Positions 825 to 20,355 of a stretch of 64,000 nt of DNA are shown in pieces. Each line of letters begins with the position of its first letter. Position 1 is the stretch's first letter. A program made the translations under genes and the position numbers. Source of the stretch: a virus (Duplodnaviria; Caudoviricetes); the IMG/VR virus record IMGVR_UViG_3300021399_000002, positions 64,001-128,000 of that record. One strand, given 5' to 3'. Below the pieces are notes generated by a model, which worked only from the letters and a program-made list of their open reading frames with translations, was not told the origin of the DNA and did not search any database.

Positions 825-931
825 TAGACCAAACAGCAATTAGGCTCGCTCTTAGCGAGGGTGGTATAAGTGGTAGTACATTTACTGTAAAGTAAAAAAT
901 TGGAGTTCGAATCTCCACCTAATTTGGTCTA
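825..931 (+). ncRNA. tRNA-Tyr mimic closed by an ACAGCAA-bearing terminal stem (copy 2)
   Basis: TAGACCAAA/TTTGGTCTA stem, ACAGCAA at 833, D-arm with TGGTA, CTGTAAA loop, TGGAG-TTCGAAT-CTCCA T-arm; no CCA. Confidence 0.65.
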
Positions 932-2546: not shown

Positions 2547-3137
2547 AAAAGATGCTTAATTCAGTAAATTAGAACCCAGTGAAGAAATGTTGACCGCATT
2601 GCTGGGGACATCTGAATGTCATCCAAAACCTTGATGGGATACTTTCAAGTATTGGGCGCAAAATCGGTAACGATTAGCGATAAGGGAGAAACTCCAAATG
2701 ACAAGGATGGGCGCTTTTATATCTAGTTGTAAATGCATGATTCCTTACGGCGGGATAATAGAAAGCTTAGTGAATAGCTAAGCCGAATCCTAATAAGGGT
2801 TTTAGTTGGTGACTGTAATCAAACTTAGGAAGAACCATAACTCGCTACTGCTGTTGAAAGTCAGAAATGACATATAAGTAAGGTTTACAGTAGTTATAGT
2901 TCAAATTGGCAGCAATTTAATATATAGAAGATTGAAAATTCTTTCAAATAAAATTGCTGAATGGTTGAATTAAACTTTGAGGTAGTCAATCCTCATCTAG
3001 CTTAGACCGAAAGGTAAGCATTAAAAGTGATCGGGTCGCGCCCGGCGCTCAGCGTAATGTTTCTAGATAGCATAATATACAATGGGGATATAAAAGTACG
3101 GAGAAAGACCGCGAATTTATTGAATTAAGCATCTTTT
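2547..3137 (+). ncRNA. large (~590 nt) structured ncRNA, ROOL/GOLLD-class candidate
   Basis: No ORF of 60 aa or more, own promoter, closed by a ~23-bp helix (2548-2570/3114-3136), many hairpins including GAAA-type loops. Confidence 0.65.
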
Positions 3138-3465: not shown

Positions 3466-3936
3466 ATGGAAGAAATTATTTATTTAGAATTTAATAATTG
3501 GTTCGGCGGTAGAGATTATCCAGAAATTCCTAATATTGAAGAATGGGTTGGTGGATGTGATAGGTTAGGATATAATTCACCACTTTTAAATGATGAGTGG
3601 TGTAAAGCACAAAAAATTTGTGTAAAAGTTGGGAATATTGATATGTCAATTAATTTTTGTATTACCGCCCTTCGTAGTTGGGTAGAGCAAAATTGTCCCG
3701 AATGTCTTACTGACGATACCTACACAGAAAATTTTTGTTATTCTAATGGACAAGAACAATGGACTAAGACTGAAAAATATTCTTTTGATCGATTTAGAAG
3801 AATGCCAGAAGATGGTGATGAGACAGTTTATGGCCGCTTTGGTTGGCGTTTTCTTGAATACAAAGAAGAAAACTTCGGGTGTATTTGGCGCGATGAAGAA
3901 GATAATATTATTGAAGAAGAGGATGAAGAAGAATGA
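3466..3936 (+). CDS. hypothetical acidic protein
   Basis: ORF in operon, ATGA overlap with next gene. Confidence 0.75.
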   Translation: MEEIIYLEFNNWFGGRDYPEIPNIEEWVGGCDRLGYNSPLLNDEWCKAQKICVKVGNIDMSINFCITALRSWVEQNCPECLTDDTYTENFCYSNGQEQWTKTEKYSFDRFRRMPEDGDETVYGRFGWRFLEYKEENFGCIWRDEEDNIIEEEDEEE

Positions 3937-4391
3937 AACTTTATACTTCATACTTCGCTCAATTAAGAAAATTTCCAACTAATTTGGTGGGCCTTTCAAC
4001 TGCAATATGGAATCCTAAATGGCGGCCAATGGGTAAAGATGCGCGTGGAGTAATATGTGTAGATTGTCCTCCATTTAAGCCTGGGAAGCAATGTGAAGGG
4101 TTGTGTCAAGGGCCACAAATATGCAATGAAATGCATCCAGATAGAACTCCAGAAAATTGTCCATTTTTAAAGGAATATAAAGCGCAGTTAGATAAGATAA
4201 ATATTATAAGTATTCAAAATAGTTTAGGCACTTTAGCAACTCGCATTGCTAAGGATGAAGGCTTGAAAGATATAGATTTTGCATTTTTAGTTTATGAAAC
4301 TCCTACAAATCCATGCTCTGAACGAATCGCAATTCAGCAATATTTTAAAGAGCATGGAATTGAATGTAAAGAATGGCAACCTAATATTTGA
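3933..4391 (+). CDS. DUF488-like protein
   Basis: N-terminal KLYTSYF and C-terminal YE.P..CSER pattern. Confidence 0.5.
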   Translation: MKLYTSYFAQLRKFPTNLVGLSTAIWNPKWRPMGKDARGVICVDCPPFKPGKQCEGLCQGPQICNEMHPDRTPENCPFLKEYKAQLDKINIISIQNSLGTLATRIAKDEGLKDIDFAFLVYETPTNPCSERIAIQQYFKEHGIECKEWQPNI

Positions 4392-4416
4392 CTTTATCTA
4401 AATTTTCTGTTATAAT
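4388..4416 (+). promoter_or_regulatory. sigmaA-type promoter
   Basis: TTGACT-17-TATAAT with TG. Confidence 0.8.
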
Positions 4417-4441
4417 ATAATTACAGAAAGGGGAGATAGAG

Positions 4442-4804
4442 ATGCGTAAGTATAGTATGAAATCTCATAAGCGTAAGAATCATCAGCATTGGTTTAATCA
4501 GTATTGCCGTTATGTAAATAAAACCATTGAAGAAGATGAACTTTGGCTTGGACGCTTTTGTGTTAAACAGAAGCGTACTCAAATGGAATGGTTTGAAGAT
4601 GGAAGTGGCGGCCTGATGCGTGCAGAACTGATCATGTTTGATAAAAAAACTAAGATTACTCGCGTAGGCTGGTATGATGGTCTTGATATGGATTGGAAAT
4701 TTTGGCACGATTTTAATGATTTTATCATTGATGATTGTAAAGTATGGGAAGAAGTTCCAGATGTGCGTATAAATCGTATTGATTATAGGAAGGAATATAA
4801 ATAA
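4442..4804 (+). CDS. hypothetical protein
   Basis: GGGAG RBS. Confidence 0.75.
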   Translation: MRKYSMKSHKRKNHQHWFNQYCRYVNKTIEEDELWLGRFCVKQKRTQMEWFEDGSGGLMRAELIMFDKKTKITRVGWYDGLDMDWKFWHDFNDFIIDDCKVWEEVPDVRINRIDYRKEYK

Positions 4805-5031
4805 TGTTTTATAAATATAAAGTCGGTTGGTATGATTCTTATAAAGATGAAGAAATTTATAGCGAAGGTATTGTAAGCGCATCTGATTATAGCATCGCCG
4901 CGGATCGAGTAGTAGATAGTTATGGAAAAGATTCTGTATTTGAAATACAGTTACGAGAAATTTTATGTGACGATGACAATGATTATTGTCTTTCCAAGGA
5001 AGATATTGATTATGCTTTCAAGGAAGATTGA
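4804..5031 (+). CDS. hypothetical protein
   Basis: TAATG overlap with previous gene. Confidence 0.7.
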   Translation: MFYKYKVGWYDSYKDEEIYSEGIVSASDYSIAADRVVDSYGKDSVFEIQLREILCDDDNDYCLSKEDIDYAFKED

Positions 5032-5039
5032 TAAGATAC

Positions 5040-5678
5040 CGCAGAAAGGATGATGCGGGATAAAAATATCAACCATCCTTATATGGTCAAGAACTTGAAA
5101 TTAGTTACAGTCATATATTGAGTCCTGAAGCCGTTAATGTGAGAACGACTATGCGTGAATGCTTGTGAAGTAAAGTAACAATGCTAAAACACATTTAAAA
5201 CGCTAGGCACTGGAAACTCCATACGAAGATAGGAGGCCCACTGGAGAATAGCAGGTGTAGGTCTTTATATGCGATAGACCAACTTAGTACATAATGTGGC
5301 TAAACTTGGAATATTAAGTATAATGTAAAGGAACCTCAAGTGTTAAGGTGAGTGACCAGGGACATCAGCATATAAGTGACAGCGAGAACTCCTTTGACTT
5401 ATATGTTCGCCCGAAGACTAGACTATGCTGAAAGGTCGCAGGCATGTGGAAGTATGGAATGGCATCCAAGTTAGATGTACACGAGAATTGGGTTAAAGGA
5501 TGCTAATTGAGTACGCGGCCAGCTCGTTAAATCGGCCTCAGAGGTACCAGTCACTCTGTATAATAACGACTGTGTATCATAGGTGTGATGGCGGCGGCAC
5601 CTAAAATCGCCACCGTGCGGCGCCAGTGGGATAATGTTTAAAGCAAAAGTCGCCCCTTAAGACTGGCAAATTTACTTC
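5040..5678 (+). ncRNA. second large (~640 nt) structured ncRNA candidate
   Basis: No ORF of 60 aa or more, GC above background, long-range pairs CCCACTGG(5237)/CCAGTGGG(5623), GAGTGAC(5350)/GTCACTC(5550), ACAGTC(5107)/GACTGT(5568); ends at a terminator. Confidence 0.55.
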
Positions 5679-5706
5679 GGGACAGCATTTGCTGTCCCAC
5701 TTTTTT
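5679..5706 (+). terminator. intrinsic terminator
   Basis: GGGACAGC-ATTT-GCTGTCCC then T-tract. Confidence 0.8.
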
Positions 5707-5708
5707 AT

Positions 5709-5737
5709 TTGACTTTTAATTAAAATTAATGTATAAT
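5709..5737 (+). promoter_or_regulatory. sigmaA-type promoter
   Basis: TTGACT-17-TATAAT. Confidence 0.75.
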
Positions 5738-5765
5738 TTTTATATAAGAAAGAGAGGTATTAAGA

Positions 5766-6557
5766 ATGAATTTGAATATTTACACAACCGAAATGGCAAA
5801 ATCAATATGGGATAAAGCTTTTTTTATGGATAAAATTATAGGAGCTAAATGCGTAATTGATTTTGGATGTGCAAATGGCGCAATGACTCGTTATCTTTCT
5901 GACCTTCATCCAGATATAACATTTGTAGGATATGATATTTCACATGAATTAATTGATCAAGCCATAATTAATGCACGCTTGTGTCCAAATAATAATCTTT
6001 TATATTATTGTGGCATTTGGGATGGATTACAAGATATGGAAGATTATGTTATAAACCATTTTGCACCAGAAGAAATCTGTATTAATTTCTCTTCTGTTCT
6101 ACATGAAGTATATTCATCAACAGGTGGCATTGAAACAATTAAAGAATTAGTTGATAAACTTAATCCGCGTTATATTACAATTCGTGATATGTATTGTGAT
6201 GAACATTTGCCTTTTACCAAGCCTACATTTAGTGAAATTTGGGGACCACTTCCCTATCAATGCTGCGTTGAATTTGTGGATAAATTTGGTATGATTACAG
6301 ATTGGCGTAGTATGACGCATCTTTTAATGAAACTTCAATGGAAAGATAATGGCTGGGAAGAAGAATTAAAAGAAGATTATTATTCTTGGGATATTGATAA
6401 GTTTATTAAGGATATTAGTATTGGCGGTGAGTATATCCCTAGCTTTGATTGCCGCTACCAGCTTCCATATCTTGGAGAGAAATGGAAGAAGGAATATGGG
6501 TGGTATAATCCTGATATTCATACTCATGCTCAATTTATTCTTAGGAGGGATGATTAA
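5766..6557 (+). CDS. class I SAM-dependent methyltransferase
   Basis: VIDFGCANG motif I, VGYDIS, SSVLHE. Confidence 0.8.
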   Translation: MNLNIYTTEMAKSIWDKAFFMDKIIGAKCVIDFGCANGAMTRYLSDLHPDITFVGYDISHELIDQAIINARLCPNNNLLYYCGIWDGLQDMEDYVINHFAPEEICINFSSVLHEVYSSTGGIETIKELVDKLNPRYITIRDMYCDEHLPFTKPTFSEIWGPLPYQCCVEFVDKFGMITDWRSMTHLLMKLQWKDNGWEEELKEDYYSWDIDKFIKDISIGGEYIPSFDCRYQLPYLGEKWKKEYGWYNPDIHTHAQFILRRDD

Positions 6558-7024
6558 TGCCAATTTTGTATATTCTTTGCGGGCCGAGTGGCTGCGGAAA
6601 AACTACTTGGGCTAACGATTTTATTAAAGAGCATCATGATATTCGTTATGTATCTCGGGATGAAATTCGTTTTCAGTTGGTAAATCCTGATGAAAGTTAT
6701 TTTTCACGCGAAAAGGAAGTCTTTCGGCGCTTTGCCAATACTATTCGGCACACTCTTGTAGATGGCTTTGATTGTATTGCCGATGCCACTCATTTGAATG
6801 AATTTTCCCGTCGTAAGCTTACACAAGCAATTGACATGTATTTTAAAGACTATGAAATTGTTTATGTCAGTTTTAATGTAAATGTAGATACATGTATTGA
6901 ACATAATGCTAATCGTGAAGGCAGAGCTAATGTTCCTGAAACTGTAATTCGTAATATGTGCAGAGACTTTCGTACTCCATCTATTGATGAAGATGAGCGT
7001 GTAAAGGAGATTATTAATGTATAA
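6557..7024 (+). CDS. polynucleotide 5'-kinase-like P-loop protein (AAA_33, Pnkp kinase domain)
   Basis: GPSGCGKTT, SRDEIR, IADATHL, R..VPE.VI. Confidence 0.8.
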   Translation: MPILYILCGPSGCGKTTWANDFIKEHHDIRYVSRDEIRFQLVNPDESYFSREKEVFRRFANTIRHTLVDGFDCIADATHLNEFSRRKLTQAIDMYFKDYEIVYVSFNVNVDTCIEHNANREGRANVPETVIRNMCRDFRTPSIDEDERVKEIINV

Positions 7025-10744: not shown

Positions 10745-11149
10745 ATGGATCTAAAAATTCACAATGGGATGCGCGTCCTATATAAACACAATGGACAATG
10801 GTGCGTTGGGAAACTTACAAATCAAATGCCGCCAAAACTTACTGAAAAGGGATTGTTTGTATTTGTTATTCCTAAAGATTATATGGATGCTGAAGAAGTA
10901 CCATATTTACATGATGTAGAAATTAATGATTTGTTTCTAGAAGCGATCCCAGTAGAAGATTGGATGGCGCAATATGGCTATCTAATGCCGAAAGAAGAAT
11001 ATATTAAATTCATTCAAAGCGATGAATTTGATAAAAACATTGAGCACGCATATGTATCAGATGGAGAATATTATTACTATAATGTCAATAAATACTCAGA
11101 ACAATGGTTAAATAAACAGCCATTTGACTATATTGTACGAGAAGAATAA
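10745..11149 (+). CDS. hypothetical protein
   Basis: AAGGAG RBS. Confidence 0.7.
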   Translation: MDLKIHNGMRVLYKHNGQWCVGKLTNQMPPKLTEKGLFVFVIPKDYMDAEEVPYLHDVEINDLFLEAIPVEDWMAQYGYLMPKEEYIKFIQSDEFDKNIEHAYVSDGEYYYYNVNKYSEQWLNKQPFDYIVREE

Positions 11150-11367
11150 TGTGGAATAAAAAAAGAATAGAAGAAAAAGATATCCCTCTAATTATTTCAC
11201 AAGGAATGGAAATGGTTAAACAGGGTAATGAATTAGTAGAACAAATTCGATGTATATATAAGCTTGAAAATGATAATATAATTTATATGATGTCACTTTT
11301 AGATTATATAGATAATCTTCCTCAAAATAAAATTATAGAATTTTGGCTTTGTCAAATGGTTAATTAA
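11149..11367 (+). CDS. hypothetical protein
   Basis: TAATG overlap. Confidence 0.6.
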   Translation: MWNKKRIEEKDIPLIISQGMEMVKQGNELVEQIRCIYKLENDNIIYMMSLLDYIDNLPQNKIIEFWLCQMVN

Positions 11368-11402
11368 TAACCATTTGACTTTTTTTTAATTTATGATATA
11401 AT
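11351..11402 (+). promoter_or_regulatory. fused terminator and promoter
   Basis: GTCAAATGGTTA/TAACCATTTGAC hairpin plus T8; TTGACT-16-TATAAT. Confidence 0.75.
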
Positions 11403-11420
11403 TTAATAAAAGGAGGGAAG

Positions 11421-12140
11421 ATGATGCCTACTGCAAAAACATATGAAAATTTTCCTTTGGATGGTGAACCTTTTAAAGAAAATGGTCGTATGTATGTTAA
11501 TATTACCACGCCCAAAGGAATTAAAAAAGTAAGATGGTATTCTGATGCTGAATATCAAAAAATGTATCCAGAAGTTACAGCAATTAATGATTTTAATGCT
11601 AATTATGCTTTTGGCTTTAGGGAAGAAGGATTTATTACTTTATATAAAGGCGATGAAGATGCAATTCGTAATTGGGCACAAGCAGAGTGGCCGCCGAAGG
11701 CTTGGTATAATACTTTATTTCATTTTTATACTCCAGGCTTTATGCCAATTACTAATCTTCCAAATACTATAACTCCTATTAAATTAACTTGGGATGAAGT
11801 TAAATTAAATGAAACACAAATGAAAGATGATAATGAAATAGAAAAATATGTTATGGCACGCATTACTGGTTTGGATCATTTTACAAGTGAGTTTCAGGGA
11901 GAAAAAGATACATGGTTGGAAAAAGAAGTTACTATTAGTAAAAATACAAAAAGTGAAAACTATTTTGGTGAAAAGCATACGCATATTATGCATGATGCCG
12001 AAGGTAATATATATGTATGGGAAACAGGCGCCAAAAATTTTGAAGTTGGTATGGTTATTAAATTAAAGATGAAAGTAAAAGCGCACAAAGAAATTAATGG
12101 AGAGAAATGTACTGTTGTTTGGTACTGTAAAGAAATATGA
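11421..12140 (+). CDS. hypothetical protein (possible C-terminal OB fold)
   Basis: AGGAGG RBS, 239 aa. Confidence 0.7.
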   Translation: MMPTAKTYENFPLDGEPFKENGRMYVNITTPKGIKKVRWYSDAEYQKMYPEVTAINDFNANYAFGFREEGFITLYKGDEDAIRNWAQAEWPPKAWYNTLFHFYTPGFMPITNLPNTITPIKLTWDEVKLNETQMKDDNEIEKYVMARITGLDHFTSEFQGEKDTWLEKEVTISKNTKSENYFGEKHTHIMHDAEGNIYVWETGAKNFEVGMVIKLKMKVKAHKEINGEKCTVVWYCKEI

Positions 12141-12346
12141 AACTATTAAATCAACGGTATTTTGGCCTGATTGCTCGATGTAATTTTGGATGCGGAGCAT
12201 TAATTGGATATGAGCCAAAAGATGTTTCAGATAATCAAACTATTACATGCCCACAATGCGGTGCGCGATTATGGGTACCATTTAATCCAACTTATGATGG
12301 CATAATTAAAGAAGAGGAGAAAAAGAAAGATGAAACTGTGGTTTGA
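12137..12346 (+). CDS. small Zn-ribbon protein
   Basis: CxxxC...CPQCG. Confidence 0.6.
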   Translation: MKLLNQRYFGLIARCNFGCGALIGYEPKDVSDNQTITCPQCGARLWVPFNPTYDGIIKEEEKKKDETVV

Positions 12347-12560
12347 AAATCGCTTTGGTGAACAACGAGAAATTGCTATTTGCGCTACTAATGAAGATAT
12401 ATATAAAGCTATTAATGCCTTTATTAATCGGGCTAATGCCGCAAAACCAAAAGGATCTACTCCATTTAAAAGTCATTATATTAGAACTTGGGAGCAAGAT
12501 GGAAAAACTTGGTATGATGTAGGAAGTCATGCAGAATTCTTTTTTACGACTAATAATTAA
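12330..12560 (+). CDS. hypothetical protein
   Basis: ORF with YDVGSH.EFF C-terminus. Confidence 0.7.
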   Translation: MKLWFENRFGEQREIAICATNEDIYKAINAFINRANAAKPKGSTPFKSHYIRTWEQDGKTWYDVGSHAEFFFTTNN

Positions 12561-17416: not shown

Positions 17417-17442
17417 GCCATCTATTTTAGATGGCTATTTTT
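17417..17442 (+). terminator. probable intrinsic terminator
   Basis: GCCATCTA/TAGATGGC then TATTTTT. Confidence 0.55.
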
Positions 17443-17457
17443 ATTGGAGGTGAGAAG

Positions 17458-20355
17458 ATGGGACAAAATTTATTTAAATCTATTGGTAATCTAGCTTATT
17501 ATCATGGATGGAGTCCAAATTATTTTTATTTTAATTCATTAACTGCAATTTCAAATATTAATACTGCATAGACTGGATTTGGTAGTCCCACCGCTGCAGC
17601 AGTCCGAGCAAAATAGGCCATACGAGATGCTGAATCTCACGCCAATTTCAATAATTTATCAGAAGATGATGCGACAACTCAAATGCTATCTCGTTTTTAG
17701 AATATTATTACTTTTTTACGAATGGCTTATAATATGGAATTATAGAATGAATAGGCTTTTTTTAAACGTAAATATACTGAATTTAAATCTCAATTTAGTT
17801 CAGATGCAGATAAAATTGCTCCATTAACAGAATTGTTAGATATGTTTAAAGACTATAAAGAAGATTCTTTTGATTATGCTAAATTTATTACTTTAATTAA
17901 TATTATTATGATGGGTTTAGATAAAACTAAAACAATTGCTTTTCATGAACAATAGCATATTAAATCTATTAATAGTCAAATTGAAGAAATGATTAAAAGT
18001 AGATAGCAGCAAGTTAGCGGTTTAGCAGATAAGTAGAAAGTAAGTGCAGAAAAAAAAGCTAAAATGATAGAAAACGCTACTCAAAAAGTAAAGAAAAATA
18101 TTACAGTTGAATACCTTAATAGTGCTAATTTAACTAGTGGTAAATGGCAAAATGGAAAGTTTAAATATCATTTATGGGGAGCAAAAAAATATTTTGGTAA
18201 TATAGAAAAAACTATAGATTAGGAAGTAGCTAAATGGGTCACAGATACTGTCAATATTGTTATTAATGATAAAAAAATGTTATAGGCATTAGCCACCTAT
18301 TTATAGACAGCTTATCCTCAAGCTACACAATTTTCTGAATTAGAAGCAGAAATCAAACGAATGATAATTACCTCTATTTAGGAATATGGACTAAGAAATT
18401 TAAGTAAAATATTGTCGGCCAATATTACAAAAAAAGCTACAAAAGAAATTGTAAAAGAGATAATTAATGATCCTAATATATTTGATACTATTCATAATTA
18501 TAGAATTGACGGTTTATATAATAATTATGGACAATTAGGAAAAGTATCTAAATTATTAGAAAATGCTACTACAATTAAAGATTTAGAAGACCCTAAAAAT
18601 AAAGGCGATGGATTATTCCAAGCAATTTCTGATATAATTGCTTGGTCAAAACAAAAATCTAAATAGGCAACTTTAACAGAAGAATAGACTTTATTATAGC
18701 AAGTATTAGAAGCCAGCGGGTCATGGGATAAAATTACTGAATTAGATAATATGATTCATAGACTTTTAACATTGGATGCTGAAATGCGTAAACGATAGAA
18801 CGCAGTAGACCAATAGTTTACTGATATAGAAACGGCTATTTTAGAAGAAGATGGTATATTTTTAGGAAAAGATGCAGAAGGCTCTTCTGTATATATAACT
18901 TTTGAAATTAAAGATGGACAAGTACAAGTTAAAGGAGATATAAAAGAACTAGTTAGTCGTACTAAAGCTTTTTAGGAACTAGGTATAAAACAACTAAATA
19001 CAAATAAAATTAATAGTATTACTGGCGTATTAAAACGTAAAGCTACAGCCAATTTACGTACTGCTTTAATTAATGGATTAAATGCCACAATGGAAGGAGC
19101 TTTACAAAGAAAGTTTGAAGATGAGGGAGTACTATTAAGACAAATTAAATAGGGGCTAGAAAATATGCATATTTCTATAGGTGGCCCAAAATTATCTGAG
19201 TTAGCAAGTGCATTAGAATTTCGGCGAGTGGGGAATGATTTAATTGTAGACTGGACCGGTGCAGCAAATGGAAAAAATGACGTTATTACTATTTCTGTAA
19301 ATACTGATAATGTATCTAAAAATTTAAATTTAGATATGAATACTATTATATCTGATTCTTTAGATCTTAATATAGAAGAATCATTAATAAATGCTCGTAA
19401 TAATTTTATTAGAGAATGGCATACTAGTGTTACTAAAGCTATTGGACAATTTGGTACAAGTACTGATAGATAGCGTTATAAAAAAATTGCCCAATAGTTT
19501 TTAACTATGTCAAGAAAACGATTAGAAAGAGATGAAAAAATCAATACTGCTTATGATGATTTAAAAAAAGCCTGGCTTAAATATAAAAAATATTTATAGG
19601 AAACTTTAAATGATGAAACGAAAATAGCCGAACTAGAGAAAAAATTTCTAGACGCATTAAGTGATTCTTTTTATGTTTCTACTACAGTAAAAACATATTA
19701 GACATATGTAAATGATATAGGATTTCACGGTGGTAGTCTAGGTGGTAATTTAGATGACTAGCTCGCGCGTATAGCTAGTATTTTTGCTATGGGAGGAATT
19801 TCAATTAAAGATGATTTAAAATGGTTACGTTCCGCTATTCTTAACTGTTCTCCTGTAAGTATTGTTAAAGAAAAAAATAAAAATTTAATTGAAGATTATT
19901 TAGGAAGCGTCGCTGCTTTAGCATTATTTGATGAAGGTGGTGCAGAAGCAAAAATTGTATCAGCAATTTTAAAGTAGACATAGAATAGCGTTAATAAAAT
20001 TGCTACTACACCAGATATTTTACATTTATATCGAACTAATACATTGTATGTCCCAGGTTCATATATTTTATAGTAGATATTATTACATCTTGAAAATGAC
20101 GTTATTCCTAATATACAAAAAATCCCTACGGTTATGAAACGTGGCGCAGGAGTTGTTATTATTAATAAAGCAAACGAGTCTATGATTGGTAATCGTCCAA
20201 TTCATACGACAGAGCACCCTTCAAAAAGTGTATGGACAATAACAGGCTAGACAGTAGCAGATAGTATTGATATTTAGATTTTATTTTTAGCTGGCTTACT
20301 AGATATTGTTAAAGGAATAAATGAATCTTTAGGAAATCTTGAATTCGCTGGATAA
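17458..20355 (+). CDS. 965-aa hypothetical protein with about 30 in-frame TAG=Gln codons
   Basis: GGAGG RBS; no TAA/TGA in frame for 965 codons; track fragments 18412, 19165 and 19789 share this frame. Confidence 0.9.

Follow-up and report, generated by a model that had tools for sequence, protein, structure and literature searches.

A conserved gap in a phage genome probably encodes a tandem of three separate structured RNA modules

Large, intricate RNAs of unknown function are rare in bacteria and phages, and GOLLD, ROOL, OLE and raiA have each brought surprises in their architecture. GOLLD has a conserved 3′ half and a variable 5′ half, with occasional embedded tRNAs. Within the tRNA cluster of phage T4, 'species 1 and 2' (rnaC and rnaD) are small stable RNAs of unknown function that are co-transcribed and released by tRNA-processing enzymes. 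ROOL beside tRNAs is a known phage pattern (PMC5737381), and a catalogue of viral RNAs holds 10,006 candidates, with 8,495 candidate RNAs listed for IMG/VR (PMC10690425). Here we analyse a non-coding gap in the window, a stretch of 64,000 nucleotides (nt) that corresponds to bases 64001-128000 of a 182,655-bp phage record with direct terminal repeats. Our data indicate that the gap probably holds not one giant RNA but three separate non-coding RNA modules (A, B and C; Table 1) that lie in tandem, fold independently and are transcribed together. As part of the same reading, module C is probably the constant part in the lineage, with A and B as optional cassettes between a possible DUF488-like gene and C.

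One of the described families lies close by. Using Rfam 15, we ran cmscan on the whole window at gathering thresholds, and on 4800-5900 also at E ≤ 10. A full-length ROOL (RF03087) was recovered at 2551-3130 on the + strand with 265.9 bits (gathering score 99.1 bits), 1.9 kb upstream of the region, so that the neighbouring RNA at 2547-3137, considered unclassified in the preliminary description, is now assigned. This ROOL has its own consensus promoter (2485-2513), and the RNA is also carried by 6 of 14 related loci. Modules A, B and C, by contrast, match no Rfam 15 family: cmscan of 4800-5900 at E ≤ 10 returned no match at all, as was the case in 14 relatives. The ROOL model was unmatched in the 5035-5706 region even at E ≤ 10, and GOLLD (RF01998) gave no match at E ≤ 10 in the window, nor at E ≤ 5 in a divergent relative. 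The earlier remark that the gap has no tmRNA, RNase P or group I/II hallmarks agrees with the absence of any such match at E ≤ 10 in 4800-5900; consistent with this, RNase P RNA, group I and II introns and known self-cleaving ribozymes were not found at E ≤ 5 in two relatives (L036 5950-6520 and L158 5530-5920).

The likeness to ROOL and GOLLD is one of kind: the array resembles them in being carried by phages close to tRNA genes, in being non-coding and rich in pseudoknots, and in having no assigned function (PMC5737381; PMC12286853). It differs in comprising three separable modules of about 180, 290 and 200 nt, with no sequence or structure match to either family and no sign of multimer-forming contacts. 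Moreover, GOLLD is recognized by a single fold of about 800 nt with a conserved 3′ half, whereas A, B and C occur separately. Bacterial Y RNAs (YrlA/YrlB, in rsr-rtcBA operons) resemble the array in setting, as structured non-coding RNAs among repair genes that include one for a Ro60-like protein, but the modules have neither a terminal 5′/3′ stem with a Ro-binding bulge nor a tRNA-like domain, and no cmscan match; the 3′ end of module C is a terminator hairpin, without a 5′/3′ terminal stem of the Y RNA type. Module A also lies between tRNAs with gaps of 0-1 nt, as the T4 rnaC and rnaD RNAs lie in a tRNA cluster, a comparison made by description and not by sequence. A blastn search of the region and two module-A relatives against 50,697 deposited phages gave no match, and the literature on ROOL/GOLLD-like phage RNAs together with a 2026 preprint on coevolution mining contained no description of A, B or C; the tables of PMC10690425 were not compared.

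Table 1 Features of the RNA region and its flanks (window coordinates unless a contig is named)
Feature	Position	Strand	Basis or remark
Upstream promoter	4388-4416	+	Consensus-like sigma-70 (TTGACT-17-TATAAT with TG); nearest promoter-like site upstream on the same strand
Module A	5035-5213	+	About 180 nt; CM R2 match 5033-5215, 134 bits
Module A, hairpin	5039-5043/5054-5058	+	Loop 5046-5052 pairs with 5074-5080
Module A, helix	5080-5085/5112-5117	+	RNAalifold consensus
Module A, closing helices	5122-5131/5202-5208 and 5136-5141/5190-5195	+	RNAalifold consensus
Module B	5214-5505	+	About 290 nt; alignment A6 and fold
Module B, closing helix	5219-5224/5452-5457	+	
Module B, hairpin	5369-5377/5397-5405	+	
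Module B, 3′ hairpin	5462-5467/5498-5503	+	
Module C	5508-5706	+	About 200 nt; H, core and terminator
Accessory H-type pseudoknot H	5508-5537	+	UGAG 5508-5511/CUCG 5523-5526; GGCC 5517-5520/GGCC 5534-5537
Core	5538-5667	+	CM R1 match 5536-5706, 213 bits
Core, P1 and PK1	P1 5539-5543/5554-5558; PK1 5548-5552/5568-5572	+	P1 loop forms PK1
Core, P2 and PK2	P2 5580-5585/5598-5603; PK2 5590-5597/5607-5614	+	P2 loop forms PK2
Core, three-way junction	P4 5622-5627/5662-5667; P5 5628-5630/5653-5655; P6 5635-5637/5643-5645	+	
Intrinsic terminator	5679-5706 (hairpin 5679-5698)	+	8-bp G+C-rich stem, loop AUUU, U-run; ends the RNA
Promoter of next cassette	5709-5737	+	Consensus TTGACT-17-TATAAT; methyltransferase 5766-6557, kinase 6557-7024 and further genes
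Module A elsewhere (contigs L137-L171)	L158:5623-5835	-	Example
Module A elsewhere	L159:1985-2171	+	Example
Module A elsewhere	L155:638-807	-	Example

The gap between open reading frames (ORFs) measures 734 nt and is bounded by the stop of ORF 4804-5031 and the start of ORF 5766-6557. The longest ORF inside it has at most 47 amino acids (aa) under translation table 11, and likewise when TAG is read as Q, in keeping with the initial view of the gap as non-coding. Its GC content is 0.40-0.50, as against 0.25-0.34 in the flanks; GC, ORF and terminator scans thus agree with the earlier picture of a GC-enriched gap between an ORF and a strong terminator. Starting from 16 syntenic loci collected through the downstream methyltransferase, nhmmer recovered the gap in relatives with E values down to 1e-117, and the DNA proved to be conserved in pieces. 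The stretch 5035-5706 (+) is conserved, ORF-free and strongly covarying. The folding energy of the single sequence is no better than that of shuffles (z = -0.14 on the + strand and -1.62 on the - strand), and the case for structure therefore rests on covariation and not on folding energy.

Transcription of the array would start at the upstream promoter, which would also drive ORFs 4442-4804 and 4804-5031; from 4416 to 5679, the + strand has no strong promoter-like site (at least 10 of 12 matches) and no terminator-like site. The terminator that follows module C is the strongest of the first 9 kb. All eight pairs of its stem covary in relatives; the sequence of the arms is free to change (GGGACAGC, GGCGGCAAG, GGGAUGGUA), each arm covarying with the other arm only. 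The promoter of the next cassette begins about 3 nt past the terminator U-run, and the two are directly adjoining in nearly all aligned relatives. At 5700-5737 of the window, the U-run merges into the -35 box of this promoter (UUUUUUAUUUGACU...), and this seam persists at nearly all loci even as the genes flanking it are gained and lost.

The core of module C was modelled from 20 sequences with a hand-set nested structure (CM R1), which gave 98 matches, 78 of them distinct. Covariation was counted on the covariance-model alignment; MAFFT alone misaligned the P2 variants. With both pseudoknots included, 95.9% of cells in the 78 distinct sequences are paired, compared with 34-46% when the partners are slid, and double changes occur in 22 pairs (3-6 in the slid controls), a value reached by none of 500 shuffles. 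PK2, for example, appears as CG, AU or UA at alignment positions 82/102 and as GC, AU, UA or CG at 83/101, and has a near-invariant C·A at 5592/5612 in its middle. G-U pairs are frequent (such as GU in 54 sequences at core pair 84/100), which fixes the strand as +. The module as a whole consists of three tandem H-type pseudoknots (H, P1/PK1 and P2/PK2), a three-way junction and the terminator. The core loops GGGAUAAUG, CAAAAG, UAAG and AACGAC are invariant or nearly so, and more than 30 unpaired nucleotides are near-invariant. Pseudoknot H is optional, being carried by 43 of the 76 distinct contexts, and shows a compensated A:U to U:A change in two sequences.

A search with the core motif GGGATAATG..CAAAAGNNNCCC..TAAG gave matches in 27 contigs of viral and 85 of metagenome origin, of which 3 were false. 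Module C is seen in about 100 contigs, apparently from the rumen, that belong to one jumbo-phage lineage. The core pattern gave five matches among 185,579 genomes of prokaryote species, all false, so no host or prophage was identified by this route. The phage's own genome carries a single core copy. A weak R1 match in another phage was discarded as just a terminator and AT-rich sequence.

Module B combines long invariant unpaired stretches with variable insertions. In 14 sequences, with the structure taken from the same alignment, the share of paired cells is 98.4%, falling to 26-43% with slid partners, and 15 pairs are doubly changed. Its closing helix covaries, with CCUAAC pairing with GUUGGG or GUUAGG in L007 and L098, and two local stems singled out beforehand, CATATAAGT/ACTTATATG and GCATCC/GGATGC, are the covarying hairpin and 3′ hairpin of this module. 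Module B occurs in 16 contexts, always adjoining C, and a pattern search for it found nothing outside the same lineage.

Module A has the widest distribution. Iterated nhmmer placed it in about 48 of the 76 contexts. A covariance-model alignment of 67 distinct sequences has paired bases in 94.6% of cells, against 27-38% with slid partners; double changes are seen at 19 of its 26 pairs, and it reaches a covariation score of 0.494, as against at most 0.105. The third local stem of the preliminary description, AAGGATG/CATCCTT, turned out to be the hairpin-loop pseudoknot of module A; this pairing of the loop with a downstream CCAUC motif is maintained by compensating changes, such as GAUGU/ACAUC in L097 and L069. 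In L036 and L044, a lone module A lies 5-8 kb upstream of C, directly after tRNA-Cys and directly before a protein gene, which in L036 (1216 onward, +) may encode a nucleoside 2-deoxyribosyltransferase-like protein. An A-specific pattern found 34 further IMG/VR phage contigs (51-290 kb) in which A sits within tRNA arrays on the tRNA strand, often directly adjoining a tRNA; in L158, a tRNA, A and another tRNA follow in order with gaps of 0-1 nt. Module C was absent from 5 of 5 searched records of these 34 phages, and no Rfam family matched at the module A sites in other phages. Module A by itself is thus a widespread RNA of large-phage tRNA arrays.

Taken together, the homologues show compensatory changes in more than 50 base pairs over the modules and conserved module boundaries. 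Relatives gain and lose the modules independently, and the combinations A+C, B+C, A+B+C, C alone and tRNA+B+C all occur. The single knotted RNA of about 640 nt envisaged at first hence gives way to three self-closed modules, of which A stands alone elsewhere and which combine variably with one another. The description of the gap as an unclassified, structured non-coding RNA holds in that it is conserved, covarying and without an Rfam match, but not in its being one large molecule. The same applies to the proposed pseudoknot: pseudoknots exist and are local, whereas the long-range crossing helices are not maintained in relatives.

A rival reading takes the region as one RNA of about 670 nt of the GOLLD/ROOL kind, in which C would form the conserved 3′ half and A and B variable 5′ domains docking by long-range pairing. 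In its favour, A, B and C adjoin one another with neither a strong promoter-like site nor a terminator in between, ROOL lies 1.9 kb upstream, and the layout resembles that of GOLLD (3′ half conserved, 5′ half variable, tRNAs occasionally embedded). The claimed pairs are indeed complementary in the window over 6-8 bp, perfectly so for 5238-5245/5623-5630 and 5349-5355/5550-5556. However, perfect complementary 7-mers more than 100 nt apart number 14 against 9.6 ± 3.6 in shuffled sequence, and 8-mers 5 against 2.3 ± 2.1, so long-range pairs are at chance level. Among the 11 B-bearing relatives tabulated, a perfect 5237/5623 pair is confined to the window, the other 10 having one uncompensated mismatch, and 5350/5550 is perfect in 3 and has one uncompensated mismatch in 8; the mismatches are C·A or G·A. 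The remaining pair, 5107/5568, competes with a covarying core helix: where GACUG of the core becomes GACCG, the change is compensated within the core (CAGUC to CGGUC, 11 sequences) and not in module A. None of the three claimed long-range pairs can thus be upheld. As A and B each close on themselves, as A is also met at a distance from C or in its absence, and with no GOLLD or ROOL match in the region even at E ≤ 10, we regard a single large RNA as rather unlikely.

A cis-acting 3′ UTR element, which would stabilize the upstream mRNA against 3′ exonucleases or insulate cassettes and have no trans function, is less probable again. It would account for the position of C, which always ends the transcription unit of the 152-aa ORF u152 (starting 29-96 nt after the gene in minimal layouts) and invariably has a terminator and a new promoter behind it. 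A simple roadblock would have no use for the more than 30 near-invariant unpaired nucleotides, though; C is fused directly to a tRNA and not to an mRNA in L124 and L111, and module A occurs within pure tRNA arrays. The compact double-pseudoknot fold with its invariant junction, directly before a terminator and upstream of an operon, might also suggest a riboswitch or attenuator in which the core is an aptamer that controls terminator 5679-5698 and read-through into the RNA-repair genes. We consider this very improbable: those genes are served by a consensus promoter of their own, about 3 nt beyond the U-run, the terminator arms vary while the core is fixed, inspection of the alignment revealed no conserved antiterminator pairing, and there is no match to an Rfam riboswitch. 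The three consecutive H-type pseudoknots with an A-rich third loop recall PK2-PK4 of tmRNA, and module C likewise lies near the transcript 3′ end. An origin from tmRNA, or a role as a decoy of its ring of pseudoknots, nevertheless has a very small chance of being correct. Module C is without a tRNA-like domain, a CCA-accepting end or a tag reading frame; in the window ARAGORN reports four tRNAs but no tmRNA, and the RF00023 (tmRNA) model of Rfam is negative here, whereas the same tools do detect a tmRNA in L155. A row of pseudoknots alone does not define the tmRNA family, and the upstream pseudoknot domain of tobamovirus 3′ UTRs, with three tandem H-type pseudoknots and A-rich loops, is a resemblance of form only. 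That the gap is no feature at all, arising by chance as low-coding sequence or from a degraded gene, would fit the unremarkable folding energy of the single sequence, but it is ruled out for all practical purposes by the covariation counts, conservation in about 100 contigs and conserved module boundaries.

The genes around the tandem follow a consistent order. Every relative with enough flank has a homologue of u152 (3933-4391, +) upstream of C, and in minimal layouts C starts 29-96 nt after it. The u152 product has no Pfam, PHROG or NCBIfam match, and its likeness to DUF488-N3a is given by an Atlas feature score of 0.91 only; we regard it as a candidate partner of the RNA. Three small upstream ORFs matched nothing in Pfam, PHROGs or NCBIfam. 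Downstream of C, a phosphoesterase homologue is present in every relative with enough flank, preceded in nearly all of them by a P-loop polynucleotide kinase and followed, where the flank reaches far enough, by a Ro-like DUF2828/DUF7788 gene; the methyltransferase is present in 31 of 66 relatives. C sits just before the promoter of a kinase-phosphoesterase-Ro-like RNA-repair block. In the window, the DUF2828/DUF7788 protein (phrog_850, 'RNA-binding protein') is encoded 2.6 kb downstream, and an RlaP-like nucleotidyltransferase, an RNA ligase and a Band-7 protein lie further on. The C-bearing contigs all belong to one related phage group (kinases 46-91% identical), and the synteny with repair genes, which may reflect shared ancestry and not function, is suggestive only. 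Among the module-A phages, a Ro-like DUF2828 homologue (37-47% identity) was found in 5 of 5 tested (L155, L165, L142, L139 and L138, four of them near-complete); two complete phages with a Ro-like gene (L189 and L192; 252 kb and 360 kb) are without module A. Elsewhere in the window, a 974-aa ORF (17431-20355, +) is open only with 30 in-frame TAG codons read as sense, and a relative carries a tRNA with anticodon CUA (L017:1528-1610); both fit TAG recoding in this phage group.

In relatives, tRNAs lie 0-21 nt from the modules. A tRNA-Thr(CGT) stops at base 1349 of L124 and the core begins with the next base, 1350; tRNA-Thr(CGT) also abuts module B in L036, and in L111, two tRNA-Thr genes lie 21 nt before the core. 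These abutting tRNAs suggest release of the modules by tRNA processing. The module borders of the window itself have no tRNA, so the three modules could here stay joined as one 3′ UTR.

On the preferred reading of three tandem modules, the array would be transcribed from 4388-4416 as the 3′ part of a small mRNA and could be cut apart by tRNA-type or endonucleolytic processing, while the pseudoknot stack and terminator hairpin may shield C from exonucleases. The invariant junction would be the site recognized by a protein from the flanking genes for RNA repair or tRNA maintenance, and the modules might act in trans as stable RNAs, as Y RNAs do within Ro/Rtc repair operons. Given the invariant unpaired nucleotides, the punctuation by tRNAs and the fixed position, the modules most likely function as stable RNAs that act in trans and are linked to the tRNA and RNA-repair biology of the phage, the repair link being drawn from gene association. 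More tentatively, and with a minority share of our confidence, A, B and C may be three new classes of ornate RNA, of which at least one (the core or A) would be the RNA subunit or regulator of a phage machine for RNA repair or tRNA maintenance, made up of the possible DUF488-like protein, the polynucleotide kinase, the phosphoesterase and the Ro-like protein, or else an RNA-only assembly like ROOL and GOLLD. Such a machine, if real, would be a new ribonucleoprotein comparable to Ro-Y RNA. The locus yields three covariation-supported families beyond Rfam 15: a triple-pseudoknot core, a 290-nt module and a 180-nt module. Their fixed place between tRNA/ROOL genes and an RNA-repair toolkit provides a testable hypothesis for a role during infection, and the gain and loss of modules with tRNAs at their borders shows how phages may assemble RNA operons.

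The four tRNAs of the window, found by Rfam scan, lie at 647-2065. ARAGORN reports a tRNA-like gene at 854-925 (+) with a two-base anticodon loop, 'ta', which matches the Rfam tRNA model at positions 6-65 only (32.8 bits). In an unrelated jumbo phage (L155, a 290-kb record; 10977-12451, -), ROOL, a tmRNA, 27 tRNAs and module A occur within 15 kb.
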